Origin: Fidelibacterota bacterium
GTDB lineage: Bacteria > Fidelibacterota > Marinisomatia > Marinisomatales > TCS56
Direction of reading: 5' to 3'
Assembly (NCBI GenBank): GCA_043822705.1
Contig: JBDRBK010000084.1
Span: 1-26,367, forward strand
DNA length: 26,367 nt
This document shows positions 1,665 through 26,367 of the stretch, one piece after another. The first letter of the stretch is position 1, and each line of letters starts with the position of its first letter. The notes beneath the pieces were generated by a model. The model was not told the origin of the DNA. It did no database searches and saw only the letters and a list, made by a program, of their open reading frames with translations. A program made the translations under genes and the position numbers.

Positions 1665-4600
1665 TTATTTCAGCAGCAGCATTTTCCGGCGGGCCTGGTA
1701 TTCGGCAGTGCGAATCAGACAGATATACATCCCGGCGCTGACCTGCCGACCGTGGACATTAGTGCCATCCCAGCGGATCGATCGGTATCCCGGTTCCTCG
1801 ATGCGATCCACCAGTGTTTTTACCAACCGTCCCTGAAGATCATAGATTGTGATCTTGACCGCCGTTTGTTCCGGCAGGTCGTAGCAAATGGTGGTGGCCG
1901 GGTTAAAGGGGTTGGGATAATTGGGATGCAGGGCGAATTTTTCAGGAATCGGCAGCCCCCCGGCGATTGCCAGCGCCGAGCGATCGATTGTTAGCGTGAA
2001 GGGTCCATTGGCTGCTGAGATTGTTTGCTGTCGGTCGCTGGCAGTAACGGTCCAGCTGCCGGTGGCATTGGCAGCGGTATCCAGCAGCGCGACCAGTTCG
2101 GCGTAGGTCCAGGTGATGCTCGTGTCAGTAATTGCCGGTAGCATTAGAATATTGAGGCCGGCGGTCAGTTGAAGCGTGTAGAAAACGCTATCGCCCTCCT
2201 CATCGCCGGCGCTGCTCCAGAGCAGTGCCAGACTTTGCTCCAGATTGTCCGGGGCCAACATTATCGTTGTGGCGTCCGCTGGTTGCAGTAGAATAAACTC
2301 AGCCGGCGGGTCATTTACCGGTTGAACCAGCAACGCCACTACCAGTGTGTCGGAATATTCACCGTCACTGACGATAATTGTGAAACTGCTGTTGTGATCA
2401 CCCTGGCGGGGAGTACCGTATAGCGAATCAGCCGCTGCGTACAGCCAGTTTGGCCGTTCCGGGAACGACCAGGTCAGATTACCGTTATCCGGATCCTGAG
2501 CATGACAGCGATAGACAAAATATTGATCTTCAATGGCCGCTGCAGTGTCAGCTGAAGTAATGACCGGTGGATCGTTGATAGCCTGCACGCTCAGAATTAC
2601 CAGCATGCTGTCGCTGGAACTGCCGTCGGAAGCAATTACCAGAAAGGACGAGTCGACTACACCGTCCATCGGCGTACCAAAGATGCTGTCGGCGGCCGCT
2701 GTCAGCCAGTTCGGGTACTGGGCGAAAGTCAGGCTGACCGGGTCCGCTTCTTCGTCGCTGGCAGTTGCGCGGTAAACAAAATACTGGTCTTCCACGGCCA
2801 GTGTATTGCCGGCGGAGGTTATCAACGGCGGGTCGTTAATCTGCTGGACGGTGACAGCAACTTGCATGGTATCGAAATATTCACCATCGGTGACGATGGC
2901 TGTGAAAACAGTATCAATATCACCATGGCGGGCAATTCCGAAAATACTGTCGGCGGTAGTTGCTAACCAGGCGGGCAGCACTGGGAAAGTCCAATCCAGT
3001 TGCGGGCTGTCCGGATCGCTGGCGGTGGCATGGTACGCAAACCTTTGGTCTTCAACGGCCAGCACCCCGGCCGGTGATGTAATTGCCGGTGGATCGTTGA
3101 TATTGACAATTGTGATAGTGAAATCCAGGTTGGAGAGTGCGGCTCCGTCATAGGCACTAATATTGACTTGGTTGGCGCCGGTGTCCGAATCGCCGGGCGT
3201 GCCGGCCAGGATATATTGCCGTGGTGAAATCTGGCGCAGGCGATAATTCATACGATCAACGATGAATATTTCCTCGGTATTTGTCACGGCCAGATAACTG
3301 GGATATTTCAAACTCGCCGCCGTCGGGTCGCCATTATCGCCACCGAAACCGGCATTGCCGTCGCCAGCCAGTGTGTTGATTATTCCGCTGGGTGTGACGA
3401 TGCGAATCCGGTTGTTGCTCTGATCACAGATCAGTAGATTGTCATTATTATCTATCTCTATTGAAGATGGTAAATTCAGTTGGGCGTTAATGGCTAGTCC
3501 GCCATCACCGGAATAACCTTTGACGCCGCTGCCGGCCACGGTTGTAATAACACCATCCGAGTCCACCATTCGAATTCGATTATTGCCGAAATCGGCGATA
3601 TACATATTGTTGCTTTGATCAAAAGCCACCTGATGGGGATAGTACAACCAGGCGCTGGTGGCCGAACCGCCATCACCGGAAAAGCCACGACCGCCATTTC
3701 CGGCCACGGTAGAAATTATACCAGCGGAGTCGATTCGACGGATACGCTGGTTACCACTGTCAGCAATATAGATGCAATTATCCGGACCAACTGTAACGCC
3801 CTCGGGATAATACAATTGGGCGCTGGTGGCGGCGCCGCCGTCACCGCTGAAACCATATGAACCGGTACCGGCAATCGTAGAGATTACGCCGGTTGTATCA
3901 ACCTTACGGATTTTGTAACCGTAATATTCACTGATATATTCATTCCCGATAGGATCGACTGCTACGCCCCGCGGAGATCTTAAGGTGGCGGCAGTTGCTA
4001 AACCGCCGTCGCCGGTGGATGTGCCAATCCCGGTGCCGGCAAAAGTGGAAATGATACCGTCCGGCGCGATCCGCCGCACACGGTATCCAGACTCCTCGGC
4101 AATATAAATACTGCCATCTGGTCCGACAGCTATGGAAGTCGGATCTTTCAATTGGGCATTGATTGCCAGGCCGCCGTCACCGGTGTCAGAGTTATTCCCG
4201 TTACCAGCGATAGTCTTGATCTGAGCTGGCGTCAATTCCAGGGCAAGCCAGGCCGGCAGGGCAACCGGGGTGACACTGACTGAGTCGCCATCGGCATCAT
4301 TGACCGAAAAACTGAATTCATAGGGCTGATCTTCAAGACCATCTGGAATTGATTCATGAATGAAAGCCGGTGCGGAATTGGGCATTTTAACTGACAGGAT
4401 AAAACTGCTGGCAGCCGATAATTCGCCATCATTGACGGTCAGTGTAATAGTCGATAAGCCGGTTTTATCACTGACTGGTGTGACCGTGACCGTGCGCTCC
4501 GAGTCGCTGCCGGCCAAAACAATATTATCATCCGGAACCAAGGCAGGATTGGATGAAACCGCTGTCACCGTCAGCTCAGCCGTCGTGGTTTCGATATCGG

Positions 4601-6404
4601 CAATGGTGAAGGACAGGGGACCGGTGTTGCAGTTCATATAAATGGTCTGGTCGGCAATTTCGCTGATCATCGGTGTGTCGTTGACGGCTATAACCGTTAC
4701 TGCCACTGTCAGCGTATCATAAAGTCCGCCGTCGGAGGCGATAATCCGGAAGCTGGTGTCGACGGCGCCTTCACGGGGGGTGCCGAAAATACTGTCGCTA
4801 TCGAAGGTCAACCAGCCGGGCAACCATTCAATGGTGATCAGTAGGGGCGCGTTATCGGAGTCCTCGGCGGTAACCCGGTAATTGAAATATATATCTTCCG
4901 TGGCCGTCACCGCCGCCGCCGAGGTGATTTGCGGCGGGTCATCCACCTGAAATTCATAGGCGCCGATATCGACGATCCCGCCCTTGCGGCGCGGTTGACC
5001 GGCCAAGTCCACCGGAAAAGTATCAACATTGGTCAGCGTATCACCGGCATTGATACAGGGCGAATTTGCCGCCAGTCGATAATCACTGGAACTGACGCTA
5101 ATAAATTGTGGATCGGCGGTGATTTCATCCAGAGATGTGATTGTGCCGGTGCTGGCATAGTTCAAATAATTGTTGTGAAAGGCATTGTTTTTGATTGTCA
5201 GACTGGTGCCATAAATAGCGGCGTTGCTGGTGCTGGGGTGATTAACAAAAATATTATTTCTGATGACTGCGGTACTACCGTGAAAAATTGCTCCGGCCGA
5301 ACCGGAGGCGCTGTAAGCATATTGATTCTTGGCCGAATTATTTATAAAAGTATTGTTCTCGATAACTACGTTGCCGCTAGCTGAGATTGCGCCCCCCTGT
5401 GCTACCGAGCCCTGGCCTTGATAGATATTGTAATCCGGGCAATTCAATCCGAGGTTATTAATAAATAAATTATTCTTGATCTGTATGTTACAATTGTTGC
5501 CAGTGCAAATAGCGCCGCCGATTACGTTGGCACCCCAATTGGCATTATCATAGCTGATCCGCCGTTCCAGTGCAATATTGCCGTCAAAAATATTATTGTA
5601 GACTTTAGGCGATCCTTCGTACAGGTAGATGGCGCCTCCGCTGGTGGCATAATCCAGATAGTGTCCGGCGCCAACTCCGGCTTTATTGTTCCGGAATATA
5701 TTACCATAGATTTCCGGGGTGCTGCCCCAGTCGGCACAAATTGCGCCACCGGTGGATGAATTATTCGCTGTAGTTGTGATGTTATTACTGAAATTGTTAT
5801 TTCGAATAATTGGATTCGATCCGGTTTCCCGAGCATAAATCGCGCCGCCGCTGGCCTGCAGGTTCTGATAGACCTTACTACTGGTATTATTGGTTATCCA
5901 GCACTGTTCGATGATCGGGGAAGCGCCGCCGTAAACCACTATGGCGCCGCCGGCGGTGAACCAAACATCTTCAGTGGTGGCGTCGCCGTTCATCATTTTC
6001 AAGCCACGGATACGAGTGGCATTGGTTATCCCGTTTGATGACAGGGTAAATATCCGGCAGCCGGAAGCACTTAAAATACATTGACTGGAGTCGGGTGTAG
6101 CATCAGCCCAATTTGTTCCGCTACCGCCATCTGATGTGATCAGCCGGTTGGAAGTCAGCTTGATATCATTTGTAATCGTGTAGGTCCCGTATTTCACTAA
6201 AATTTCATCTCCCGGGGAAGAGGCACTGAGTGCCCCGGCCAGGGTCGTTTTGGCGGTTGCCCAGGACAAACCGGAACCGTTGGGGCCAGCGGCGTCAACA
6301 AAATAGGTGGCGGCATCAAGGCCGGATACAGAAAATAATAGAATAATCACAAAAAACGTAGTACAATATTTTTTGGGGAGTAGCGAGGAGGTCATATGTA
6401 TCAT
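1665..6404 (-). CDS. Large secreted/surface protein: signal peptide, right-handed beta-helix (GGAI repeats), choice-of-anchor-Q-like segment, cadherin/He_PIG-like Ig repeats, six NHL repeats and a C-terminal T9SS-type A/FlgD-Ig sorting domain
   Basis: Hydrophobic N-terminus ending LDA-ATYFVD; repeated GGAI..NN.F..N; ADPQF...YRLAANSPCINAG...DIGAYE; repeated NDPP.ITS...EDQ.F.Y...P.WL; six GDGG.A..A.L..P repeats; C-terminus FALHPNYPNPFNP...IYDLQGRLV...WDG...SAGMY...KMLLLK. The start may be 6395 rather than 6404. Confidence 0.88.
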   Translation of the reverse strand: MIHMTSSLLPKKYCTTFFVIILLFSVSGLDAATYFVDAAGPNGSGLSWATAKTTLAGALSASSPGDEILVKYGTYTITNDIKLTSNRLITSDGGSGTNWADATPDSSQCILSASGCRIFTLSSNGITNATRIRGLKMMNGDATTEDVWFTAGGAIVVYGGASPIIEQCWITNNTSSKVYQNLQASGGAIYARETGSNPIIRNNNFSNNITTTANNSSTGGAICADWGSTPEIYGNIFRNNKAGVGAGHYLDYATSGGAIYLYEGSPKVYNNIFDGNIALERRISYDNANWGANVIGGAICTGNNCNIQIKNNLFINNLGLNCPDYNIYQGQGSVAQGGAISASGNVVIENNTFINNSAKNQYAYSASGSAGAIFHGSTAVIRNNIFVNHPSTSNAAIYGTSLTIKNNAFHNNYLNYASTGTITSLDEITADPQFISVSSSDYRLAANSPCINAGDTLTNVDTFPVDLAGQPRRKGGIVDIGAYEFQVDDPPQITSAAAVTATEDIYFNYRVTAEDSDNAPLLITIEWLPGWLTFDSDSIFGTPREGAVDTSFRIIASDGGLYDTLTVAVTVIAVNDTPMISEIADQTIYMNCNTGPLSFTIADIETTTAELTVTAVSSNPALVPDDNIVLAGSDSERTVTVTPVSDKTGLSTITLTVNDGELSAASSFILSVKMPNSAPAFIHESIPDGLEDQPYEFSFSVNDADGDSVSVTPVALPAWLALELTPAQIKTIAGNGNNSDTGDGGLAINAQLKDPTSIAVGPDGSIYIAEESGYRVRRIAPDGIISTFAGTGIGTSTGDGGLATAATLRSPRGVAVDPIGNEYISEYYGYKIRKVDTTGVISTIAGTGSYGFSGDGGAATSAQLYYPEGVTVGPDNCIYIADSGNQRIRRIDSAGIISTVAGNGGRGFSGDGGSATSAWLYYPHQVAFDQSNNMYIADFGNNRIRMVDSDGVITTVAGSGVKGYSGDGGLAINAQLNLPSSIEIDNNDNLLICDQSNNRIRIVTPSGIINTLAGDGNAGFGGDNGDPTAASLKYPSYLAVTNTEEIFIVDRMNYRLRQISPRQYILAGTPGDSDTGANQVNISAYDGAALSNLDFTITIVNINDPPAITSPAGVLAVEDQRFAYHATASDPDSPQLDWTFPVLPAWLATTADSIFGIARHGDIDTVFTAIVTDGEYFDTMQVAVTVQQINDPPLITSAGNTLAVEDQYFVYRATASDEEADPVSLTFAQYPNWLTAAADSIFGTPMDGVVDSSFLVIASDGSSSDSMLVILSVQAINDPPVITSADTAAAIEDQYFVYRCHAQDPDNGNLTWSFPERPNWLYAAADSLYGTPRQGDHNSSFTIIVSDGEYSDTLVVALLVQPVNDPPAEFILLQPADATTIMLAPDNLEQSLALLWSSAGDEEGDSVFYTLQLTAGLNILMLPAITDTSITWTYAELVALLDTAANATGSWTVTASDRQQTISAANGPFTLTIDRSALAIAGGLPIPEKFALHPNYPNPFNPATTICYDLPEQTAVKITIYDLQGRLVKTLVDRIEEPGYRSIRWDGTNVHGRQVSAGMYICLIRTAEYQARRKMLLLK
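3228..4222 (-). repeat. Six tandem ~56-aa NHL repeats (teneurin-like beta-propeller) within the large secreted protein
   Basis: Six copies of I.T.AG.G..G..GD.G.A..A.L..P....V......YI.D..N.R.R.I are readable in the translation. Confidence 0.85.
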
Positions 6405-6567: not shown

Positions 6568-9500
6568 TCAGCGCGCTTTGGCGATTTTGCCGCGTTTTTC
6601 GATGGTGGTTTTACCTTTGGTCACTTTAATTTGGTAAAAATACACACCATTGGCGACAAAATCACCGCTGCGGTCGCGACCGTCCCAGATGATCTCATGA
6701 TAAGCGCCGGCCCGCGGATCGAGATCGGTGAGAGTGGAACCGCCGGTGAGCCGGCGGATGCGCCGGCCATCAACAGTATAAATATCCAGATGGAAATCAT
6801 CCACCGATTCGGTCAGTTCATAAGCGAAGCGCGTCTGGTCGGTAAACGGATTGGGGAAATTACCGTAATCGATCAGTTCCAGTTTTTCCCGGACGATAAA
6901 TTTAAGTTGCAGGGTATCGGACGCATTGCCGGAAGCATCGTGGGCTACTATTGCCATACTGGTATCCGTCCGGGAAAGGATTGGCGAATACTGCAAGCCA
7001 AGTTGGTTGGATTGGCCGGACATGACTGTAATTGCGGGCGCCGCGATTTTCTGCTGATTGATCCACACGGTAAAGGCCGAGGACCGGTGGTCGATACCGT
7101 TATCGTCCTGACCGACCAGGGAAATCAGCGGGGTGGAATTCAGGTAGCTGTCCCGCAGAAAGCGCTGACCGTTGATGGCGGCTTCCAGACACGGCCGGGT
7201 GACGTCACGGCTGGTCAAGAAGGCGAATCGTCCGGGAGCACTGGCGGTAAAACCGATGCGATCGCCGGTCGCGATAACATTAAGGACCGGCAGCCAGATT
7301 TCACGTTCGGGGTACCAGGTGAACAATTTCACCGAATCGGGCAATGTAGCAGGCAGTTTCCAGGAAATGTCGGCGCTGATTTCGGCGGTACAAAATAATT
7401 CTACTCCGAGTCGGAGCGTATCAACCCGCACCGCAGCCAAATCCGGTTGTCGGGGAATCACCGGCGTGTTCAAGTCACTGATTTTGAGTACCATATCTGC
7501 AGCTGTCGCGCCGGGGGCGATTTCCACTTCGATGCCGTCGACGCCGACAACGGAATGGTTCAGGCGATCGGTGGTGCTGCCCAGCGGACCGGTAAGCCAG
7601 AACGCATCGGTCAGCAGTTCGGTCGAAAGCGTATCGTTGCCGGTTTCCGCTGTCGCGATGGCACGGATTGTGTTCCTCCCGGCCGGCAGGGCGCAGCGCG
7701 TCTGGGCGGGCAGCAGACCGGCGCCGGCGAATTGAATAGTATCGGCGCCTGATTCCAGCCAGTTATTTCCATCCCGGCGCTGAAAACGGACCGTAACCGT
7801 CCCGACACCGATGGAGGTGTTTTGAACCTGGGCCGCCAGTTGAAGATCATTTTCGGTTTTCAATGTCAGGCCGACCAGTTTGACCTGTGGCAAGTCGCGG
7901 ATGATAATTGTTTTTTCTGGGCCGAGGCTGACCTGTCCGGTACTGTCGGTCACCCGGCAACGGAAGTTAAGCGTCGTCCCGGCAGCGAACGGTGGCAATG
8001 GTTGCGCCAGTTGATATGTCTCTCCGCCGGCATCGACCAGACCGGCATAATCGTTACTATTAATCAGGAGTCGCACGGCCGCAATTCCCTGGCGGTCGGA
8101 AACCTGGGCGGTCAGCCAGAGACTGTCGCGGAAAGTGGGATTTACCGGTAGTATCTCCCGGACTACGGCGTAACTGCCGGAAACCGTCAGAGGCGCACTG
8201 GCGCGATAACCACGACCACCGGCCTGCCAAGATGCAACCAGGGTGTAGTTGCCGGGCCGCAACGTGTCCGCCAGATTGTAGTAATACTTCTGGTCCGCTG
8301 ATATTTCGATCGTCTGCGGGTATTTGGTCGGGGGATTTCGATCGTCGTCAAATAACAGGATTCGCAGGGAATCGCAGGGCGAATCTGGTGGCTGGATAGA
8401 AATTGTTTCGCCCGGTTCCGGGTTGTTGGATGAGATTGCTATCGATGACTGGTCATAAAACGGCAGGGTCAGGGCGGGGTCGCCGGACAGATTGAATTGA
8501 TATATTTGCGATTTCGCAATATCGGGGAAAGCGCTGTTGGTCAGATAATATTCGATTTTAGCCTGATTGATCAGTTGACCGAATGGTATTCCCGGTGTCT
8601 CGAACAGGTGTTTGTGGATTGGTTGCAGCAGCAGGTAATCGTTGATGATCCAGCCGACCCCAGCGCTGCCGAACCAAGCCGCGACTCCGCCATTATCATA
8701 ACTCATCAATCGACGCCCGAGGGCGTTGGGGTTGGTCACATCTCCAGTATGACAAGTCATGCTGGTTACAAAAGGTGTTTTACATTTATTATCCAGATAA
8801 CTCACATCTTCCAGAGTGAATATGGAACGATCGCCCCAAACTGCGCCCCCACCATGCCCAAGGAAATTGATATAAAGTAATCCGCGCGAGAAATACTGCA
8901 GCAGCGAATCAGTGTTACCGTAATACAGACCACCTACGGAATATTGATCAATATTAAGTCTGATTGGAAATATACCACGGTCCAGGATATTGCTAATTAG
9001 CATCTCAGATTGTTCTTTGAAAGTATTGTTATAACCGGCGATCATCAATACCTGATCATGCCAGTTCCGCGGTGCCGATTCCAGTAACGTCAGAGTCTTG
9101 GCTACCATTTGTTCGAGTTCGGGAATATCCCGGGCCGGCAGTCGGCCGATGGCGATCTCGGGAAGCAGGTCATCGTCGATCAGTGTATACCAGAAATCAG
9201 CCGCCGCCGCCCCCCATTTAACAGTCTGGATTTTCATTGAAGGGATGAAATTGTTGCGGAACACTGATGATCGTTGCCAGCCTAATTGATCCCCTTGCAT
9301 GGCAATCAATACCGTCTGTAGCGGCTCCGGCCAGTTGTAATAAATATCTTTCAGGAATTCATTGATGGCGTATGGTGATAGCCGACCATGGCTGTAGCGG
9401 CGATAGACTTCATCGATATTGACTGCAAGTCCGTTGTGAATTTCAACTAACGGCTCTAGGGTGGTGAAGAATGAATCAGGCGCCAGGATCAGATATGGGG

Positions 9501-11226
9501 CCGAGCCGGTGATTGTTGCACCGGTCAGCGGTTCGGCTACCACGAGGTTTTTCACGGTTCGCAACTGATCATCCGTGAAGGCATGATAGCGGTTTCTTTC
9601 CGCCCCCGGGAAATCCTGGAAAATGATATTGAACTGATTCTGCCCGGCATCATCAAGCACTACAAAATCCTGTAACCGTGATAGATTTTCCTTGAATAGC
9701 CAGATATCCGGACTGGAAAAACCAGTAACTTCAAACTGAGTGACCACGGGTGTGTCACTGGCGCGGGTGAAAACGATCTGATCGGCGGTGGCCCGGTACA
9801 GGCGGTCGTAAGTAATTTCGACCCAGTTCAAATATACCTGATCGTAGAGGTTGGTTGGATCATCGCCTTCCAGTGTAATCAGCAGTCCATTGGCCCCATC
9901 AGTTAAATAATTATTAAGTAGCACCTTATTGGGGTCGGAAGATATTATTTGGGCCTGCTGGCCGGTCCAGCGTGCATCGGCTACCTGGTAATTGTTGAGA
10001 AACGCCTGGAGTGCATGTTCGCCATTGGTTATCCCCTGGATTTCCATTTTTACCTGGAATTTACTGGCGGTAGTCGAGCGCGGTCCGGGCAGGAACAGAT
10101 CGAATTGCCGGGAGGTACCGCCGTTGATCGGTGGTTCCATGAAGAAATGGTCGAATGTATCCCATTGCTGATGGGTGCCCATGCTGCCCAACCGGGCGAA
10201 ATATTCATCGCGTTCGATATGCTCGGTATGACGAAAACTGGGCGGTTGCAGTACTTGGTTTTCCGGCAGGTCGGGGTAGGCGCTCTCGGCAATGTAGCGC
10301 AGTCCCGGTTCGCCGCCCCAAGTCAGCCAGTAAACATTTTCGTTGGTATAGAAATTATTTTGATAGGGCGCTTCGGCCGGGGGCGGATTTTTTTCGCCAT
10401 AGAAAATTATCCGGTCGTTCCGGTTGAATTCACCGGCGGTCTGGCCCTCGACATAGATCAATATCTCGCGGTCGGCGTTCCACAGCCGGAAAGTGGCCGG
10501 ATCGACATTCCTGATGCTTAGCCCGCTGTCGACCAGAGTCGAACGCGGCAGGCTGTACCAACCAGTTGTGTCAATCGTGATCCGGACGAGATTGGCGGAG
10601 AACTGGTACGCTGGCGTACTGGTCGTGCGGGTCAGGGTTGGTAGTTGGCGTCGGGGCAGATCACTCAGATTGATCTGCGATAAAAGTACCGGCGTAGTCG
10701 TAGCCGGCTCGCTCCAGGTCAGCTTCACTGAAATGTTTTTATGCCAGATCAGTTCACCCGCCACAATCAGAACCGGGTTGACCCGGAGTATACTGCTGGT
10801 ATGGCCCCGTATCCGGCCGGCGTCGGTCAACTGGACGTTGACTGCGGGGTAGGGCGAACCATTCCAGGTTGGCCCGGCGACGGTATATTCGATTCCTTTG
10901 GCCTGTTCCTGGAGTGTTACCACAGGTACTAACCCGGAAATAGTATGGGCGGCATCAGTGAAGAATTCCACTGTCGCATCGGGTGGCACGCCGACGATTA
11001 CCTCGGCAACTACCGGCATTGCCGGATATCCCGGTACCAGCGACTGTTCCAGGGCCGGCGCGGTGATTATCTCCGACTGGTTTTTAATGAAGACGGTATC
11101 GATAGCAACTTCCAGAACCAGCAGGCCGGGGCGATTCATTACGATTTGCATAACCGGCTGGGCCGGCAGAATTGATGCAATGAGCAGACAGTAAATTAAC
11201 TGCTTGATAATTGTTACTAATCGCAT
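6568..11226 (-). CDS. C25-family (gingipain-like) cysteine peptidase with PorU-like architecture and C-terminal sorting domain
   Basis: Signal peptide; propeptide-like PGYPAMPV region; IIFYG...YTNENVYWLTW; IAIGRLPA; catalytic His in FLGHGG and Cys in SMTCHTG; NLSGDPAL; C-terminus NFPNPF...IYTVDGRRIR...WDGRD..GD.VANGVYFY. Confidence 0.88.
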   Translation of the reverse strand: MRLVTIIKQLIYCLLIASILPAQPVMQIVMNRPGLLVLEVAIDTVFIKNQSEIITAPALEQSLVPGYPAMPVVAEVIVGVPPDATVEFFTDAAHTISGLVPVVTLQEQAKGIEYTVAGPTWNGSPYPAVNVQLTDAGRIRGHTSSILRVNPVLIVAGELIWHKNISVKLTWSEPATTTPVLLSQINLSDLPRRQLPTLTRTTSTPAYQFSANLVRITIDTTGWYSLPRSTLVDSGLSIRNVDPATFRLWNADREILIYVEGQTAGEFNRNDRIIFYGEKNPPPAEAPYQNNFYTNENVYWLTWGGEPGLRYIAESAYPDLPENQVLQPPSFRHTEHIERDEYFARLGSMGTHQQWDTFDHFFMEPPINGGTSRQFDLFLPGPRSTTASKFQVKMEIQGITNGEHALQAFLNNYQVADARWTGQQAQIISSDPNKVLLNNYLTDGANGLLITLEGDDPTNLYDQVYLNWVEITYDRLYRATADQIVFTRASDTPVVTQFEVTGFSSPDIWLFKENLSRLQDFVVLDDAGQNQFNIIFQDFPGAERNRYHAFTDDQLRTVKNLVVAEPLTGATITGSAPYLILAPDSFFTTLEPLVEIHNGLAVNIDEVYRRYSHGRLSPYAINEFLKDIYYNWPEPLQTVLIAMQGDQLGWQRSSVFRNNFIPSMKIQTVKWGAAAADFWYTLIDDDLLPEIAIGRLPARDIPELEQMVAKTLTLLESAPRNWHDQVLMIAGYNNTFKEQSEMLISNILDRGIFPIRLNIDQYSVGGLYYGNTDSLLQYFSRGLLYINFLGHGGGAVWGDRSIFTLEDVSYLDNKCKTPFVTSMTCHTGDVTNPNALGRRLMSYDNGGVAAWFGSAGVGWIINDYLLLQPIHKHLFETPGIPFGQLINQAKIEYYLTNSAFPDIAKSQIYQFNLSGDPALTLPFYDQSSIAISSNNPEPGETISIQPPDSPCDSLRILLFDDDRNPPTKYPQTIEISADQKYYYNLADTLRPGNYTLVASWQAGGRGYRASAPLTVSGSYAVVREILPVNPTFRDSLWLTAQVSDRQGIAAVRLLINSNDYAGLVDAGGETYQLAQPLPPFAAGTTLNFRCRVTDSTGQVSLGPEKTIIIRDLPQVKLVGLTLKTENDLQLAAQVQNTSIGVGTVTVRFQRRDGNNWLESGADTIQFAGAGLLPAQTRCALPAGRNTIRAIATAETGNDTLSTELLTDAFWLTGPLGSTTDRLNHSVVGVDGIEVEIAPGATAADMVLKISDLNTPVIPRQPDLAAVRVDTLRLGVELFCTAEISADISWKLPATLPDSVKLFTWYPEREIWLPVLNVIATGDRIGFTASAPGRFAFLTSRDVTRPCLEAAINGQRFLRDSYLNSTPLISLVGQDDNGIDHRSSAFTVWINQQKIAAPAITVMSGQSNQLGLQYSPILSRTDTSMAIVAHDASGNASDTLQLKFIVREKLELIDYGNFPNPFTDQTRFAYELTESVDDFHLDIYTVDGRRIRRLTGGSTLTDLDPRAGAYHEIIWDGRDRSGDFVANGVYFYQIKVTKGKTTIEKRGKIAKAR

Positions 11227-20422: not shown

Positions 20423-21091
20423 TTAGTTCATAGGTTGAACACAGGCCGGACTGTTATTGGCCGGTGAATTGACTATATTCGAAACGGGGTAAGCTTCAAG
20501 CTTTTTGCCGTAAGGCCGCAATAATGGCAGTGCCATGTCGGCCGAATTAATTTTCGTTTGCAGCCAAACGTCCAGATCTTCTTGTAGCAAGATCACCGGC
20601 ATCCGATCATGAATATAGGCCAGTCCTGGCTGGGGTGTGGTGGTAATTACCGTGTACGAATAGACTGTTTCACCATCCGGTTTCACCCAGCGGTCCCAGA
20701 GTCCTGCCATCGGCAGCAATCCACCGCCGGACGGGTGAATATAATAGGGCTGCTTTCCGGAGCCTGATTTACGCCACTCGTAATAGCCGTCGGTGATGAC
20801 GACGCACCGTTTATTGGGCAGCAGACCGCGGAAAGCTGGTTTCTCCCGGATAGTTTCCGTCCGGGCGTTGATCATCCGGGCGCCGTATTTGTCGTCTTTG
20901 GACCAGGCCGGAATCAATCCCCAGCGCATCAGCCGCACACGGCGGTGGCCGTCGTCGATCAGAATCGGTGAAGTCTGGGTCGGGGCGATATTGTAACTGG
21001 GGGCGTAATTATCGGGGTCCTCCCAATCCTGGATTGCCAGCTCCTCAATGATCGACTGCATGTCTTTGGTCAGTGTTTTACGTCCGCACAT
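20423..21091 (-). CDS. SOS response-associated peptidase (SRAP; YedK/HMCES family abasic-site cross-linking protein)
   Basis: N-terminal MCGR (Cys2), YNIAPTQ, MRWGLIP.W, INAR.ET, GYYEW, HDRMPVIL, PVS..VN: all family motifs are intact. Confidence 0.95.
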   Translation of the reverse strand: MCGRKTLTKDMQSIIEELAIQDWEDPDNYAPSYNIAPTQTSPILIDDGHRRVRLMRWGLIPAWSKDDKYGARMINARTETIREKPAFRGLLPNKRCVVITDGYYEWRKSGSGKQPYYIHPSGGGLLPMAGLWDRWVKPDGETVYSYTVITTTPQPGLAYIHDRMPVILLQEDLDVWLQTKINSADMALPLLRPYGKKLEAYPVSNIVNSPANNSPACVQPMN

Positions 21092-21093
21092 GG

Positions 21094-21128
21094 TCAGGGA
21101 TCAGGTTTCAGGGATCAGGTTTCAGGGC
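21094..21128 (+). repeat. Heptamer array A (TCAGGNN x5)
   Basis: TCAGGGA TCAGGTT TCAGGGA TCAGGTT TCAGGGC. It contains the four-helix-bundle stop codon and ends 2 nt from the SRAP ATG. Confidence 0.9.
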
Positions 21129-21473
21129 GGAGCGCAAGCCATTTAACATACGTCCGATTTCAGATGTTTGTTTTGAAAATGGTTTCATTTTGCTAGTGGA
21201 AATATAATCCAAACGATTACTGATATGCAGCAATGTCTCCAATTCAGCGAGTGAACCGTAAGCAATTGATAGATGCTGCAAATATTCTTTTGTGTGTTGA
21301 CGGCTGTGTCCTTCAGCTATATTTGCCGAAATAGAGACAGCAGCTCTTTGTATTTGACTGGATAAACCAAATTTTTCATTATCGGGATAACGTCTGGTGA
21401 TTGCATAACAATCGATTACTAAATCAACCGATTTCTGCCAAACAATCAAATCTCTATAATTCTTAATTTCCAC
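21108..21473 (-). CDS. Four-helix-bundle protein (23S rRNA intervening-sequence protein family, related to DGR bAvd)
   Basis: YRDLIVWQKS, YP..EKFGL.SQI.RAAVSI.ANIAEG..R, L.IAYGSLAELET, MLNGL. GTG at 21473 lies 8 nt after AAGGAG (ORF-track start 21482). Confidence 0.93.
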   Translation of the reverse strand: MEIKNYRDLIVWQKSVDLVIDCYAITRRYPDNEKFGLSSQIQRAAVSISANIAEGHSRQHTKEYLQHLSIAYGSLAELETLLHISNRLDYISTSKMKPFSKQTSEIGRMLNGLRSALKPDP

Positions 21474-21494
21474 AATTCTCACTCCTTCGGTGTT

Positions 21495-21529
21495 TTACTG
21501 ATCCCTGCCCCCTGAAACCTGTACCCTGT
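21495..21529 (-). repeat. Heptamer array B (NCAGGNN x5, inverted relative to array A)
   Basis: Minus strand reads ACAGGGT ACAGGTT TCAGGGG GCAGGGA TCAGTAA; it encodes the last residues and the stop codon of the upstream gene. Confidence 0.8.
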
Positions 21530-21938
21530 TTATGTTTTCCACCGGCAACCAGTCATCCATATTACCATATTCACTCTTGTCGATTTCGAATGGGGCGACC
21601 GCTTGAACATTTCCGACTTCGATCAGCACCAGGTAGTGTTTTCCAGCCCAGCGCTGGTACTCTCTGTCGCTCAATTGCAGTTTGTCGGCGTATCGGTCCA
21701 CCAGGGCGGTTGATTCATTTTTGGTCATTTTGCCGGAATTGATAACACCGGCCACCGTGCCCCGGGCTTTTACCAGTCCTTCGGCGTTATTGTTGATGAA
21801 ATAAAGGATATCATCTTTGAAAACCCGGCCGTGCGGCAGTTTGCGACCCGCCGCCCCGCGGATGATCATTGTCCTTGTTCCATCCAGCAGATTATCCATT
21901 TCCTTTGCTTTGGCGTCAACATATACTACGTGGTCCAT
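21495..21938 (-). CDS. Conserved hypothetical protein, possibly ASCH/PUA-like fold
   Basis: ATG at 21938 after GAGG. The pattern L..G.(K/R)T..IR.......GRV..DD.LYF followed by beta strands resembles the ASCH GxKTxxxR motif; the fold assignment is an inference. Confidence 0.6.
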   Translation of the reverse strand: MDHVVYVDAKAKEMDNLLDGTRTMIIRGAAGRKLPHGRVFKDDILYFINNNAEGLVKARGTVAGVINSGKMTKNESTALVDRYADKLQLSDREYQRWAGKHYLVLIEVGNVQAVAPFEIDKSEYGNMDDWLPVENINRVQVSGGRDQ

Positions 21939-21978
21939 ATTTTTCCTCATTTCCAATTGCTTAATTTACCTGAACTGA

Positions 21979-24900
21979 TCAAACATAGCTGGCCGTCGCC
22001 AGCGGTTTTTCATACTGTTTTGGTTCCTGATCCCTGAAACCTGGTCCCCGTTTTCTGTCCAGCGCCGGCAGGCTGGCCAGTTTTTCGATGGTGATCGTGT
22101 ACACGCCGAAGGCCTCTTCCACTTTGCCGCGCACGAGGAACAACCGCTCCCAGTTCAGCAGATCGCCGAATTCCCGGAAGGCCTCCGGAAAGAGAACGCA
22201 TTCGTAGATATCGGTCTCGTCTTCCAGGGTCAGGAATTCCATGGGGTCATGCTGGCGGGTGACGGCGACCTTGCGGGTGATGTAGACTCCCGCCAGCCGG
22301 ATCGACTGGCCCGCGTAGTGGGGAATATCCCGGGCTTTTTTCACTTTACCTTTCAAAAACGAATCGTATTCCGCCAGGGGGTGACAGGAAATCGGGAAGC
22401 CGAAGGAATCGATCTCCATCCGTCGTTTTTCCGCCGTGGTGGGATTGCCTTTCACCGGGGCGGTCGCCGGCCGGTCGGAGCCGTCGGACAGGTAGAAATT
22501 GGCGATCCGGTAGGCGATTTCCTTGTGGGTCAACTCCGGCTCCAGTTCGGCGAAACAGCCGGCATTGGTGAAAGCCATGGCATCGGACAAATCCAGTTCC
22601 ACCCGGGTCATAAAATCCTCGAGGTCGGTAAAATCGCCGGCCTTGCGCTCGGCCAGCACGGCAGTGATGGCCTTGCCCTGGAGCCGGTTGATCGCCATCA
22701 GGCCCATGCGAATCTGCCGTTTGCGGCCACGGAATTCCCGGAAACTGCGGTTGATCTGGGGCGGCAGGATGATGATCCCGAAACGCCGGGCCTCGCTCAG
22801 GTAGGCATAACTGGAATAGAACCCGCCCTGGTTGCTGATCACCGCCGCCAGGAATTCCGCCGGATAGTGGGCTTTCAGGTAGGCGCAGGTGAACGACAGC
22901 ATGGCGTATGAGGCGGAATGGGGCTTGCAGAAGGAATAACCCACGAAAGAGGCGATCATGTCCCAGACCTGGTCCACCAGTTCCTTGTCGTAACCGCGGT
23001 TGCGGGCGCCGGCGTAGAACTTTTTCTTCCAGCCGGGAATCAGCCGGTTCAGCGAGTCCCGGCTCATGGTCTTACGCAGGGCGTCGGACTGGGCGTAGCC
23101 GAAGCCGGCCAGGGCCCGTGCCGCCAGCGATACCTGCTCCTCGTACACCATAATGCCGTAGCTCTCGTTGAGAAAATCCAGGTCCCGGTGCAGCGGTTGC
23201 CAGGGCTGGCCGTGGATCCGTTCCAGCATCAGGTTGGTGAAGCGGTTGGCCGCCGGTCGGATAATCGATGAGTAAATCACCACGTGCTCGAAATCCACTA
23301 CTCCCGCCTTGGCCAGCAACTGGCGCGTGGCGGGGCTCTCGATGTAAAACACGCCCATGGTGCGCCCGGCCTGCATCAGGGCCGTGGTCTTGGGATCGCC
23401 GATGGGCTGGATCCGGTGATAATCGATGTAATCGGAACGGGCTTTCTTGGGATAGTAAAGGTTGATCTGTTTGAGCGTATCCCGCACCACCGCCAGGGAA
23501 CGGTTGCCCAGCAGGTCGATTTTGAGCAGGCCTGAGTCCTCCACCTGATCCTTTTCCCATTCGACGATCTGAACGCCCTTGGGAGCCGTCAGCACCGGCA
23601 CGTGCCGGCGAATCTCATCGGGCACGATCACGATACCACCGGGATGCACCGACGGATTGCGGAACGTGCCCACGATCTGCTGACTGCGGCCGATCACCTC
23701 CAGCAGGGTGTCATCCAGATGAGCGTTGGCGAAACGGGGGTCGGTCTTGATCCAGTTCACCAGATCGCTGCGGCTGCGCCACTGGTAGCCGATGCGCTTG
23801 GTGATGGCGTTGATCTCTTCATTGGACAGGCCGTAAACCTTGGCTACCTCGCGGATGGCGGAACGGGGGCGCAGAAACACCTGGCTGGCCACCATGGCCG
23901 TGCGGCTGGTGCCGTATTTCTTGAAAACGTAATCGATGATGTCGTCGCGTTCGTCCCAGGGAAAATCCACATCGATATCAGGCATGCTTTCGCGCTCGGG
24001 ATGGATGAAACGCTCGAACTGCAGGTTGAACAGGAGCGGGTCCACCTGGGTGATGTAGAGGCAATAGCTGACGATCGAGGCCGCCGCCGATCCGCGGCCG
24101 ATGGTGGATTTGGTCTGCCGCACGATATCGCGCACCACCAGGAAGTAGGGGGCAAAACCCTTCTGGGTGATCAGTTCCAACTCGTAGTCGATCCGCCGCC
24201 GCACTTCAGCGGTGATCGAGCCGTAGCGCTCCCGGGCGCCCTGTTCCACCAGCTCCCGCAGGCGGGTGTTGGAATGGTGCTGGTTTTTAAGGTCCAGGCC
24301 GGGAAAAATCGTGTTGACGAAATTCCAGTCGGTCTTGCAGCGCTCCGCCAGAAAGGAGCTGTTGTTGATGGCGTCCAGGCTGTTGGGGAAGCGGCGGATC
24401 ATTTCCTTCTCGTCGCAGAAATAATGGGCGGCGGACTTGTAATCGGCCGCTGTAAGTTGCGACAGGGTGGCGTTTTTTTCGATGGCCCGCAGCACCTGAT
24501 GGGCGGGTTGATCCTCCGGGCGCAGGAAATAGACATCGCCGGTGACCACCATTTCCAGGTTGAAACGCCGGCTCATCTGCCGGGCGACGGCTTCAGTCGT
24601 GCCGGGACGCAATTCCACGAACAGGTGCGAGTCGGGCACAATGGCAGCCAGTCGTTCCAGATTTTCACAGCGGTGGGCCAGGATGAAGAGTCCGCCGGAA
24701 TGGGGCTCGATCAATCCTTCCAGTTGGGCGTTTTCGTCATCGTGCACGGCGGAAATGATCCGGCAGAGATTGGCATAGCCGGTCGTGTTTTCCACCAGCA
24801 GGACCAGGTCCGCGTCGCCGGTGATGATATTGGCCCCGGCGATCGGTTTGACTTCCGCCGCGTGGGCGTGCTGCACGAAGCGGATGAAACCCCACAGGCC

Positions 24901-25023
24901 GTTGACTTCCGTCAGCGCCAGGTAATCCATGCCCTGCTCCCGCGCCGCCGTGAGCAGCTCCTGTTGGGAAACCGTTCCGCGCATGGCCGAAAACCGGGAA
25001 TGGACGTTGAGGTGGGTCAGCAT
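21979..25023 (-). CDS. dnaE2: Error-prone DNA polymerase III alpha-like subunit (DnaE2/ImuC type)
   Basis: PHP domain HLNVHS.FS, GRGSAAAS, FERF, catalytic PDIDVDF and KIDLLG, FCKPHSASYA..AYLKAHYP.EF.A, OB fold MEFLTLEDET. It has no C-terminal tau-binding domain and its start overlaps the stop of an ImuB-like gene. Confidence 0.87.
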   Translation of the reverse strand: MLTHLNVHSRFSAMRGTVSQQELLTAAREQGMDYLALTEVNGLWGFIRFVQHAHAAEVKPIAGANIITGDADLVLLVENTTGYANLCRIISAVHDDENAQLEGLIEPHSGGLFILAHRCENLERLAAIVPDSHLFVELRPGTTEAVARQMSRRFNLEMVVTGDVYFLRPEDQPAHQVLRAIEKNATLSQLTAADYKSAAHYFCDEKEMIRRFPNSLDAINNSSFLAERCKTDWNFVNTIFPGLDLKNQHHSNTRLRELVEQGARERYGSITAEVRRRIDYELELITQKGFAPYFLVVRDIVRQTKSTIGRGSAAASIVSYCLYITQVDPLLFNLQFERFIHPERESMPDIDVDFPWDERDDIIDYVFKKYGTSRTAMVASQVFLRPRSAIREVAKVYGLSNEEINAITKRIGYQWRSRSDLVNWIKTDPRFANAHLDDTLLEVIGRSQQIVGTFRNPSVHPGGIVIVPDEIRRHVPVLTAPKGVQIVEWEKDQVEDSGLLKIDLLGNRSLAVVRDTLKQINLYYPKKARSDYIDYHRIQPIGDPKTTALMQAGRTMGVFYIESPATRQLLAKAGVVDFEHVVIYSSIIRPAANRFTNLMLERIHGQPWQPLHRDLDFLNESYGIMVYEEQVSLAARALAGFGYAQSDALRKTMSRDSLNRLIPGWKKKFYAGARNRGYDKELVDQVWDMIASFVGYSFCKPHSASYAMLSFTCAYLKAHYPAEFLAAVISNQGGFYSSYAYLSEARRFGIIILPPQINRSFREFRGRKRQIRMGLMAINRLQGKAITAVLAERKAGDFTDLEDFMTRVELDLSDAMAFTNAGCFAELEPELTHKEIAYRIANFYLSDGSDRPATAPVKGNPTTAEKRRMEIDSFGFPISCHPLAEYDSFLKGKVKKARDIPHYAGQSIRLAGVYITRKVAVTRQHDPMEFLTLEDETDIYECVLFPEAFREFGDLLNWERLFLVRGKVEEAFGVYTITIEKLASLPALDRKRGPGFRDQEPKQYEKPLATASYV
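22024..22051 (-). repeat. Heptamer array C inside the dnaE2 3' end (inverted relative to array A)
   Basis: Minus strand reads ACGGGGA CCAGGTT TCAGGGA TCAGGAA; 22026-22043 is the exact reverse complement of 21102-21119 (18 bp). Confidence 0.85.
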
Positions 25024-26231
25024 GGCCCCCTCCGGGGGAAGTTAAATTTGAAATTTTCACTTTCCAGGTTCTTCCTGCCGGATTGATCCTGGCCACCGAT
25101 CCCGATACTGGTGAAGCCGTATTTTTTTCGCACCTTGTCCAGGGCATCGGACAGAATCCGCTCCCGGGGATCGCCGCCGGCGAACAGGTCCAGTTGCCGG
25201 GCGTGATAGCGCAGGCCGCCGGCATCGATCAGGAGCGAACGGATGCGGTTGCGGCGGTAATTGGCCTGATCGAACAGCCGGAAGCAGGCCGCCGTCACGG
25301 TGGCATCATCGTTGGCCTGCAGGCGGCTGACGCGGTTGTTTTTCAATCCGTCGGTGTAGTGGATTTCCACGGCGATGCGCCGGGCCACCTGTCCCCGCCG
25401 CCGCAATTTGAAGGCCACCTGCTCCGCCAGGTTGCGCAGCGCCGCCCGCAGCAGGTCGATATCATTGGTGTCGGCGGGGAGGACGGTCTGCTCCAGAATA
25501 TGCGCGCGCAGGGCCGGCGGCTGGACCAGGGAGGTGTCCTGACCGCGGGCCTCGCTGGTGAGTCGGCGGGTGTAATTACCGAACAGGGTGGCGGCTTCCG
25601 TGGGACGGTCGGCCACGGCCTGAATCTGGCGAACCTGCTCCAGAAACAGGAAATCCAGGATGCGCCGGACGGCCCGTTCACGGCTGGTGGGGAGCACCGG
25701 GGCCGGCAGGGGCGCCAGAAATATTGGTTCATCGCCGGCTGCGACCTGGTGGATGGTATCGGGCACCACGGCGGTGGAAATGCTGCTGACCAGCTTGTTG
25801 GGACTGATCCCCACCACCCCGGACAGGTTGGTGCGGTCCTGTACTTGGCGGGCGATGTTACAACCGGTGCGGCGGGCGTCGCCCCAGACCCGGTCCATGC
25901 CGCTCATGTCCAGAAAATACTGGCCGAAGGCCGCCGGCTCCACCACCGGCGTAAAATCGGTGACGGTGGAATAGACATAGCCGTTCAGCCGGGCGTAAAG
26001 CGATGAATTGTAGGGCAGCAGCAGGGTGGCGGTGGACATCTTGCGCACCAGCGCTACGTTCAGTCCCCGGAACAGCCCTTCCCGGCGGGCCTCGTCGGAG
26101 AGGACCACGATCGTGCCATCCTGCCGGTTAGAGGAAATGATGGCGATCGGCCGCGTCCGCAGGGCCGGATCCAGGATTCGTTCGGCCTGGAGTTCAAAGT
26201 CTTTTAAGCGAATGTGGTAGATGGAGGACAC
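25017..26231 (-). CDS. imuB: Catalytically inactive Y-family polymerase homolog (ImuB-like)
   Basis: DinB-like layout (P.LR.RPIAI, S.EAR..G...G, FTPVVE, FLDMSG, GISPNKLVS.I), but the catalytic motifs are replaced (HxDMDxF -> HIRLKDF; SIDE -> AFGQ). Beta-clamp motif QLDLF; C-terminal ALD.VR.KYG; stop overlaps the dnaE2 start (ATGCTGA). Confidence 0.82.
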   Translation of the reverse strand: MSSIYHIRLKDFELQAERILDPALRTRPIAIISSNRQDGTIVVLSDEARREGLFRGLNVALVRKMSTATLLLPYNSSLYARLNGYVYSTVTDFTPVVEPAAFGQYFLDMSGMDRVWGDARRTGCNIARQVQDRTNLSGVVGISPNKLVSSISTAVVPDTIHQVAAGDEPIFLAPLPAPVLPTSRERAVRRILDFLFLEQVRQIQAVADRPTEAATLFGNYTRRLTSEARGQDTSLVQPPALRAHILEQTVLPADTNDIDLLRAALRNLAEQVAFKLRRRGQVARRIAVEIHYTDGLKNNRVSRLQANDDATVTAACFRLFDQANYRRNRIRSLLIDAGGLRYHARQLDLFAGGDPRERILSDALDKVRKKYGFTSIGIGGQDQSGRKNLESENFKFNFPRRGPC

Positions 26232-26367
26232 TAGTTATTGGTCAATGGTCAATGGTCAATGGTCAATGGTCAATGGTCAATGGTCAATGGTCAATGGTCA
26301 ATGGTCAATGGTCAATGGTCAATGGTCAATGGTCAATGGTCAATGGTCAATGGTCAATGGTCAATGG
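26232..26367. repeat. Perfect heptanucleotide tandem repeat (TGGTCAA)n running off the window end
   Basis: One degenerate unit TAGTTAT (26232-26238), then 18 perfect TGGTCAA units plus TGG from 26239 to 26367, directly adjacent to the imuB GTG start. Confidence 0.97.

Follow-up and report, generated by a model that had tools for sequence, protein, structure and literature searches.

A four-helix-bundle gene between complementary heptamer arrays

The stretch of DNA examined here (the window) is the whole of contig C84, positions 1–26,367, of the 3.34-Mb, 93% complete genome of a Fidelibacterota bacterium, designated G000 (other G-numbers stand for relatives, L-numbers for loci and C-numbers for contigs). 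Its minus strand carries, in order, an IMS/ImuB-like gene, dnaE2, an ASCH-like open reading frame (ORF) of 147–153 aa, a gene for a four-helix-bundle protein and the gene for an SOS response-associated peptidase (SRAP), and the four-helix gene is bracketed by arrays of short repeats (Table 1), an arrangement that is real and non-random. Arrays A, B and C were found where the original prediction had placed them, with B matching A at 25 of 35 positions around a 12-bp perfect core and C matching A over a perfect 18 bp, and each overlaps the 3′ end of a gene: A that of the four-helix gene, B that of the ASCH-like gene and C that of dnaE2. Tandem Repeats Finder (TRF) reported array A at 21094–21127 with a period of 14/7, and the inverted pairs detected were 21088–21125/21498–21535 (38 nt, 76%) and 21097–21119/22026–22048 (23 nt, 96%). 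The final 18 nt of the four-helix ORF (stop codon at 21110–21108) lie within array A, which ends 3 nt before the SRAP ATG, and array B lengthens the ASCH-like ORF by six codons relative to that of G004 and provides its stop codon (21497–21495). A fourth array, (TGGTCAA)18, had been overlooked.

The 466-nt RNA comprising B, the four-helix gene and A folds at a z-score of −5.0, equalled by none of 100 shuffles, and B and A close the stem in the minimum-energy and centroid structures alike; the B:A arm score of 32 exceeds 22, the 95th percentile of the same genome's 444 control small ORFs. As isolated duplexes, B:A and C:A have predicted energies of −46.6 and −47.5 kcal/mol, respectively. When the 981-nt minus-strand RNA was folded, the two stems excluded each other in the ensemble, as had been proposed, with C:A and not B:A predicted to be favoured. 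No Rfam covariance model matched the window at gathering score, and of six read runs, all in the form of contigs, the single RNA run gave a few short pieces with no joint at the arrays, too little to be informative. SRAP here lacks a Shine-Dalgarno-like site, and the predicted stem has the SRAP ATG at its base; ribosomes that translate the four-helix ORF into arm A could open that arm.

The four-helix protein matches PF05635 (E 3.5e-39; 133.7 bits, cut-off 33.8) and TIGR02436 (126.8 bits, cut-off 24). Its ORF-finder start is 21482, the probable start being the GTG at 21473, which has a GAAGGAG Shine-Dalgarno-like site 7 nt ahead of it and an ATG at the equivalent position in the G001 ortholog. 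In a fold search with the AlphaFold model (predicted local distance difference test score 95.5), Xcc0516 (2GSC; Z 20.6, root-mean-square deviation 1.1, 113 residues aligned) and BT_0352 came first and Avd next (Z 14.5, deviation 1.6, 106 aligned). Residues L12, Q43, S50, N54–G58, S77 and E80 are near-invariant, and the pI is 9.3. According to PMC4990558, Xcc0516 forms a toroidal pentamer; Avd, also a pentamer and positively charged, is reported to bind an RNA stem-loop alongside a reverse transcriptase (bioRxiv 10.1101/2023.10.23.563531). The protein here is presumed to be pentameric too. No transposase or nuclease match was found for it by Pfam, NCBIfam or fold search, the structure lists (VIA, Foldseek) gave no catalytic family above the helical-bundle background, which excludes nothing, and PADLOC matched none of three proteins. 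The gene has a GC content of 0.38, compared to 0.50–0.63 for its neighbours. Its dN/dS ratio relative to G001 is 0.116 at a synonymous divergence (dS) of 1.7, and that of SRAP is 0.102 at dS 2.0; the copy at the dnaE2–SRAP site is thus old, vertically inherited and functional, and under purifying selection.

Table 1. Minus-strand features of the window and the means by which each was identified.
Feature	Position	Strand	Identified by
SRAP, downstream host gene	20423..21091	-	Profile search
Array A, right (C-rich) arm, 5 heptamer units	21094..21128	-	TRF, inverted-repeat search
Four-helix-bundle gene (PF05635/TIGR02436, S23p/Xcc0516 family)	21108..21482	-	Profiles, fold
Array B, left (G-rich) arm	21495..21529	-	Inverted-repeat search
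ASCH-like (PUA-fold) gene, passenger between C and B	21495..21938	-	Predicted fold
dnaE2-type error-prone DNA polymerase III alpha, upstream host gene	21979..25023	-	Profile search
Array C, G-rich arm within the dnaE2 3′ tail	22024..22051	-	Inverted-repeat search
IMS/ImuB-like gene	25017..26231	-	Profile search
(TTGACCA)n, 18 units or more; right arm of a probable second four-helix cassette	26239..26367	-	TRF

Four-helix genes with complementary arms form a class

We examined the flanks of the seven PF05635 genes of G000 together with those of 56 loci from GTDB, 30 from same-order genomes and L003. One same-order locus was dropped as a duplicate of a G000 paralog, 90 of 96 profile hits had full flanks, and dereplication at 80% amino acid identity plus removal of two double-counted loci left 69. 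Controls were the 444 mechanically called small ORFs, whose 95th percentile served as threshold (hence 5% pass by construction). The inverted-arm score had a median of 31 in the 90 loci, compared to 16 for cross-pairs, for the direct orientation and for the controls, and 72 of the 90 exceeded the threshold. After dereplication, complementary flanking arrays were significant in 53 of 69 loci, a locus' own arm ranking as top partner in 33 and within the top three in 50. Each of the seven G000 genes has its own short-unit arrays: in all six scorable paralogs the own downstream arm was the best partner though units differ, as the original prediction had anticipated, and the seventh, on C192, had an arm score of 41 in the genome-wide array scan. 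Array, four-helix gene and complementary array are hence a recurring, self-contained unit, as had been suggested, and gene-less alleles exist at the present junction. That B–gene–A is such a cassette is well supported, and we consider it highly probable.

In the 53 loci with significant arms the unit is 7 nt long in 31, 8 nt in 16, 9 nt in four and 6 nt in two, with 48 distinct unit words and one to ten units per arm (mode four). Left arms are poor in C (145 C compared to 543 G), and units resemble a conserved 5-nt core with two variable nucleotides. Similar proteins carry similar units: cross-arm matches exceed the threshold in 0.9% of pairs below 30% identity and in 53% of those at 60–80% (Mantel p 0.001, with kin not independent, so that this indicates co-inheritance of gene and unit, not recognition). 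The likeness holds where neighbours differ (L094/L095, L031/L037 and L036/L043 (Saprospiraceae vs Rickettsiales)), and at the site shared by L031 and L057 both arms have switched unit with each pair still self-complementary. A quick-search protein tree with 61 rows and 115 columns was poorly resolved and therefore served as illustration only. Four-helix copy number ranges from 0 to 26 per genome, none being found in 21 of 61 genomes. Two ideas about the units were tried and set aside. Stop codons in all frames as the reason for 7/8-nt units found no backing, since a stop occurs on one strand or the other in 40 of 53 units compared to 35.6 in shuffles (p 0.066) and the sense left arm has 32 compared to 31.9; nor did five units per pentamer, given the mode of four.

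Cassettes fill operon junctions. Four-helix genes are co-oriented with both neighbours at 48 of 62 cassette loci, compared to 228 of 423 in a noisy control set; the upstream stop codon lies at most 15 nt from the outer end of the left arm in 26 of 36, the next ATG lies −5 to 25 nt from the right-arm end in 19 of 36, and the four-helix ORF extends into the right arm in 21 of 53. The host genes around cassettes are of unrelated functions.

Presence and absence at the dnaE2–SRAP junction

Among the 30 SRAP loci compared, that of G000 included and several being broken off by contig ends, the four-helix gene is directly upstream of SRAP in three (G000, G001, G021). Empty sites, which the original prediction had envisaged, do occur: in 14 loci dnaE2 is followed by SRAP with no four-helix gene, and in four of these SRAP is just 35–88 nt beyond the last aligned dnaE2 residue. 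Filled and empty relatives are strongly diverged (dS about 1–2 or saturated), and no target-site duplication was evident by eye. In G001 the order is ASCH remnant, B, the gene, A and SRAP, with neither dnaE2 nor C. Relics are frequent: a relic of A remains in G004, behind ASCH plus a Schlafen/AlbA gene, and a hairpin with no gene stands at the site in G020, its unit different from that of the G000 cassette. G021 belongs to another family; its dnaE2 end bears a left arm that is matched, across a contig break, by a right arm ahead of SRAP, the unit being CAGTT-type.

C-type arms stand at the dnaE2 end with no A or four-helix gene there in G002, G005, G008 and G036, and would pair with the G000 array A at −40.5 to −49.5 kcal/mol, about as its own C does. 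The G000 array C also matches the A of G001 over 18 bp. A groundwater relative (run X5 contig) retains dnaE2–C–ASCH, and the layout with all of C, B and A was seen, among the 30 SRAP loci, in G000 only. Two alternative stems acting as a switch, as originally proposed, are not borne out by these relatives, since C is kept in four of them without A and B:A in G001 without C. On the simplest reading of the sequences, the site received, long ago, an insertion of the form dnaE2–left arm–gene–right arm–SRAP; the ASCH-like gene would have entered it later, with C ending up outside and B inside. Because C persists without A and B:A without C, array C is probably an older left arm, left behind in the tail of dnaE2 once the cassette had come to contain the ASCH-like gene, which would make the C:A match a by-product of history.

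Other occupants were seen at this site. In G004 (L004 oriented 7563–9023), a Schlafen/AlbA_2 and Fic-like gene is the passenger, and in G001 (L077:163–749) a ParE/HTH pair lies directly upstream of a 5′-truncated ASCH-like gene. In G021 (L013 3′ end and L082), an extra inverted repeat at the contig break between left arm and four-helix gene suggests another insert inside the cassette.

A second cassette and GxxExxY genes at the lexA–imuB junction

Only C84 and C192 end in a TGGTCAA array, and C192 holds lexA, a TGGTCAA-type arm and another four-helix gene (G000:C192:15936–17139). In G002, lexA, a four-helix gene and imuB are all on one contig. The two contigs hence very likely join, and the SOS operon very likely carries two cassettes with different units, the cassette at the dnaE2–SRAP site being probably co-transcribed with the lexA–imuB–dnaE2–SRAP operon. 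A frameshift in a run of A interrupts the C192 gene (pseudogene or assembly error); the G002 ortholog is intact, and the pair has a dN/dS ratio of 0.068. Horizontal replacement of the C192 copy (dS 2.3, compared to 0.6 for imuB) was considered and rejected, as SRAP has dS 3.6 in the same genome pair. In G002, the imuB start appears to overlap the cassette gene stop within the arm.

At the lexA–imuB junction, G000 and G002 have a four-helix cassette, whereas a GxxExxY gene (TIGR04256, PD-(D/E)XK nuclease family) is present in G004 (intact) and in G005 and G008 (decayed). The GxxExxY genes there (L001, L002, L004) have ~9-nt inverted arms of their own and may, with these, be a parallel cassette class with a nuclease. 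Junctions thus serve as slots that gene-plus-arms units of alternative kinds can occupy. Two more GxxExxY genes were noted in G000 (C98:35235–35594 and C128:37510–37875), and a gene-less hairpin of GxxExxY-arm type before SRAP in G047.

Arrays away from four-helix genes

The unit pattern of the dnaE2–SRAP cassette (CAGGG-type) has 14 matches in G000, three of them in the window, one gene-less hairpin of this unit being on C66. Scattering of the heptamers irrespective of the gene, which the original prediction had counted against itself, was thus found in part, as same-unit arrays are also dispersed with no four-helix gene. Of 27 sites listed in relatives we examined 20, leaving out the G001 cassette, G040:C113 (~100 nt from a four-helix gene) and five others. 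By eye, ten of the 20 are G-rich arms at a gene 3′ end, eight are C-rich arms before an ATG and two are unclear. A four-helix gene is present in 13 of 14 relatives with CAGGG-type arrays and in 26 of 46 with no such arrays, which, kin not being independent, is a hint only. The reversed-pattern control for the array search was not clean, as tandem units match by rotation, and the genome-wide array scan with strict thresholds found 8 of 42 arrays paired, a lower bound since it overlooked arms B and A themselves.

A solo C-rich arm 2–9 nt before the ATG of the same membrane-protein gene was seen in three genomes (G000:C82:86690–86715; L140 and L142), with no partner or four-helix gene. Some intergenic stretches of G000 consist of serial repeat types, with heptamer and octamer arrays of differing units and palindromes like repetitive extragenic palindromic (REP) elements (C13:18300–19500, C100:36200–36554, C178:1–700 and C198:20580–20930).

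Relation to known systems

The closest known case is the intervening sequence (IVS) in helix 45 of Coxiella burnetii 23S rRNA, in which heptamers lie in a 28-bp stem and RNase III cuts at the first repeat; the description also recalls the idea that the IVS ORF once served mobility (PMC4990558). Shared features are the PF05635 protein family, a length of ~435 nt for the cassette and 428–444 nt for the IVS, terminal inverted arms with a predicted stem around the ORF, tandem heptamers in the arm that directly precedes the ORF, low GC and sporadic distribution. Unlike an rRNA IVS, the cassette lies between protein-coding genes and not within an rRNA helix, and has no Rfam match in the window; unlike that of Coxiella, it is multi-copy with a different unit in each copy, and its ORF, with a Shine-Dalgarno-like site located in the loop, evolves under purifying selection, in contrast to the Coxiella ORF, for which decay is reported (PMC4990558). 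The Coxiella IVS is cut by RNase III, whereas here the stem is known from prediction and an RNase III gene is present in the genome.

As in the systems of REP-associated tyrosine transposases (RAYTs) and REP doublets forming hairpins (REPINs) described in PMC3337134, the gene is tied to its own short repeat family, with cognate flanking repeats, intergenic gene-less inverted pairs and solo repeats. A RAYT, however, is a transposase and REPs are palindromes, whereas here a four-helix bundle with no known catalytic role is flanked by arms of tandem 7/8-mers; the sole ORF between B and A is that of the PF05635 protein, and no transposase is encoded. Avd of diversity-generating retroelements (PDB 4DWL, 8UB7) has the same fold (Z 14.5–15.0) and is likewise basic, with weak family hits to PF22296 and phrog_3206, but identity is 12–14%, the score of 54.7 bits falls below the Avd equivalog cut-off of 80, no reverse transcriptase was found in the genome, and the repeats listed for the window include no template/variable repeat pair. 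The cassette thus resembles an IVS in anatomy and RAYT/REP in its cognate dispersed repeats, and is a member of neither by their defining tests.

Intergenic 7-mer arrays, often of 2–6 units and in convergent pairs or just upstream of start codons, have been described in Xanthomonas (GGGAATC inverted pairs; PMC4692102) and Beggiatoaceae (TAACTGA arrays before start codons; PMC4679880), and in a word search of the main texts of these reports neither S23 nor intervening sequences nor a four-helix gene in this sense turned up. Genes of the four-helix family have been reported within cas loci (18 cases; PMC3936711) and scattered over 16S and 23S insertion sites (bioRxiv 10.1101/2024.02.27.582315), and appear as annotation only in PMC10053308 and PMC5524665. 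No description of heptamer-armed cassettes at operon junctions as a class was found in the literature searched, which included few subscription journals, so that a description may exist elsewhere in print. The class to which the feature belongs is widespread and apparently uncatalogued, and is best placed with ORF-bearing IVSs as a variant found outside rRNA.

A proposed mechanism and its alternatives

B–gene–A (21094–21529) is a gene-plus-two-arms cassette that fills the junction of two operon genes and that some relatives have and others lack. In our proposal, the arms likely pair within the transcript and bracket the gene as in rRNA IVSs, and the stem, whether cut by RNase III or not, would make the insert cheap for the host, as any cut falls between genes and ligation is unneeded. 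At the weakest step, the basic pentameric protein would bind its own repeat unit and thereby help the cassette to be kept and to arrive at new junctions; the machinery for this would come in trans, as no nuclease or reverse transcriptase is encoded in the cassette. Decay would yield gene-less hairpins and solo arms. We give this mechanism of RNA stem and cognate binding a probability of about 0.5.

Several results weigh against it. Sixteen of the 69 loci have no significant arms. Selection on an RNA stem should leave an excess of sense-strand mismatches rescuable by G·U pairing, and none was found (53 compared to 52; 17 loci with more, 16 with fewer and 20 tied). The G001 ortholog RNA folds at a z-score of −1.5, with short helices interrupted by internal loops, and its broken stem may be a poor RNase III substrate. 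Among the 20 dispersed arrays none has an inverted partner or a four-helix gene, and some are kept across genera, three sets being orthologous, so that arms persist without pairing. No recent mobility was seen, the copy being old and static with a dS to G001 like that of SRAP; no reverse transcriptase (PF00078) was found in the 93%-complete genome or among the window ORFs; and a need for a promoter could alone explain co-orientation. From the dispersed arrays we conclude that pairing accompanies the presence of the gene, that arms can persist alone and that C:A is not conserved.

The strand symmetry of the arm mismatches would fit an element acting at the DNA level, like RAYT/REPIN, a rather unlikely but serious alternative in which the arms are inward-facing recognition ends (duplex sites or single-stranded DNA hairpins) for the four-helix protein and a nuclease in trans. 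RNA pairing would then be incidental, and the element would have given rise to hairpins and solo arms as its non-autonomous forms. It would also account for the unit following the protein, for the gene-less hairpins of the same unit on C66 and of another in G020, for the PD-(D/E)XK GxxExxY gene with inverted arms in the same kind of junction, and for units of 5-nt core plus two variable nucleotides, as expected of binding sites. It is at odds with a protein that matches no transposase or nuclease, with the absence of an evident target-site duplication, and with what is described for the nearest systems, since the closest characterised relative, Avd, binds an RNA stem-loop (bioRxiv 10.1101/2023.10.23.563531) and the rRNA copies are processed as RNA (PMC4990558). 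A domesticated translational regulator, which would help the host by binding solo arms at gene ends or starts, with the flanking arms as autoregulatory sites and gain or loss as ordinary gene turnover, is improbable. Long vertical retention under purifying selection, the polarity of 18 of the 20 solo arms, the arm before an ATG kept in three genomes and MacGregor's proposal of translational regulation for the TAACTGA arrays (PMC4679880) are in its favour, but decay of a junction-filling cassette leaves the same polarity, copy number varies widely down to none, flanking host genes are functionally unrelated and one G000 copy is frameshifted.

Very improbable is a switch whose mutually exclusive C:A and B:A stems were selected to loop out one or two genes from the SOS transcript. 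The near-equal duplex energies, the perfect 18-bp C:A match, the exclusive pairing in the ensemble and the dnaE2–C–ASCH order of the groundwater relative agree with it; against this, the three-array layout is confined to G000 among the 30 SRAP loci, relatives keep C without A or B:A without C, and the equal match of the G000 array C to the A of G001 means that C:A is not tuned to the locus, so this locus-specific idea contributes little. Least probable is that there is no system at all, only heptamer arrays made by slippage, to which heptamer excess has been ascribed (as cited in PMC4679880), and template switching at quasi-palindromes around an ordinary passenger gene. Arrays do grow to 18 or more units and occur with no gene, but this fails to explain paired own-unit arms in 53 of 69 loci of one protein family compared to 5% of control ORFs, and is already largely refuted.

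Beyond the RNA-stem mechanism of the single cassette, we suggest, more tentatively and with some doubt, that four-helix cassettes are an undescribed class of transposase-free selfish elements that includes rRNA IVSs as a special case. Each pentameric Avd-like protein would recognise its own 7-nt repeat, the arms would let the insert fold out of the mRNA and so sit at any stop/start junction, and decayed arms would be the source of heptamer repeats that have long gone unexplained in many bacterial genomes. This would join three open questions, namely what the large PF05635 family does, how ORF-bearing rRNA IVSs arose and spread, and why bacterial genomes have an excess of 7-nt repeats. Seven paralogs in one genome, each with its own unit, are a natural set for comparing cognate and non-cognate binding, and a protein family of variable repeat specificity would be of interest as a tool.

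Host genes and other features of the window

The dnaE2-type gene scores below every NCBIfam dnaE/dnaE2 equivalog cut-off and passes the superfamily polc cut-off. The ASCH-like ORF had no match in a Pfam search; its predicted structure has a template-modelling score of 0.77 relative to the PF04266 cluster, and the gene is present in 4 of 61 genomes. Cassette aside, lexA is followed in the operon directly by the ImuB-like gene, and no imuA-like ORF was seen between them, no profile search for it having been made. Upstream of lexA, a ~33-nt motif with two ACTTACG(A/G)GT-like copies is near-identical in four genomes (G000:C192:15895–15935; L001, L003 and L004) and is a candidate LexA operator of the lineage.

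Elsewhere in the window, an inverted repeat with 29-nt arms (12012–12040/12342–12370; 76%, 301 nt apart) lies around the start of an ORF that is presumably alpha/beta-hydrolase-like. Two large proteins that look secreted by eye are encoded at 1665–6404 and 6568–11226; one has internal repeats of 168 and 261 nt, and both share what appears by eye to be a similar C-terminal sorting-type domain.

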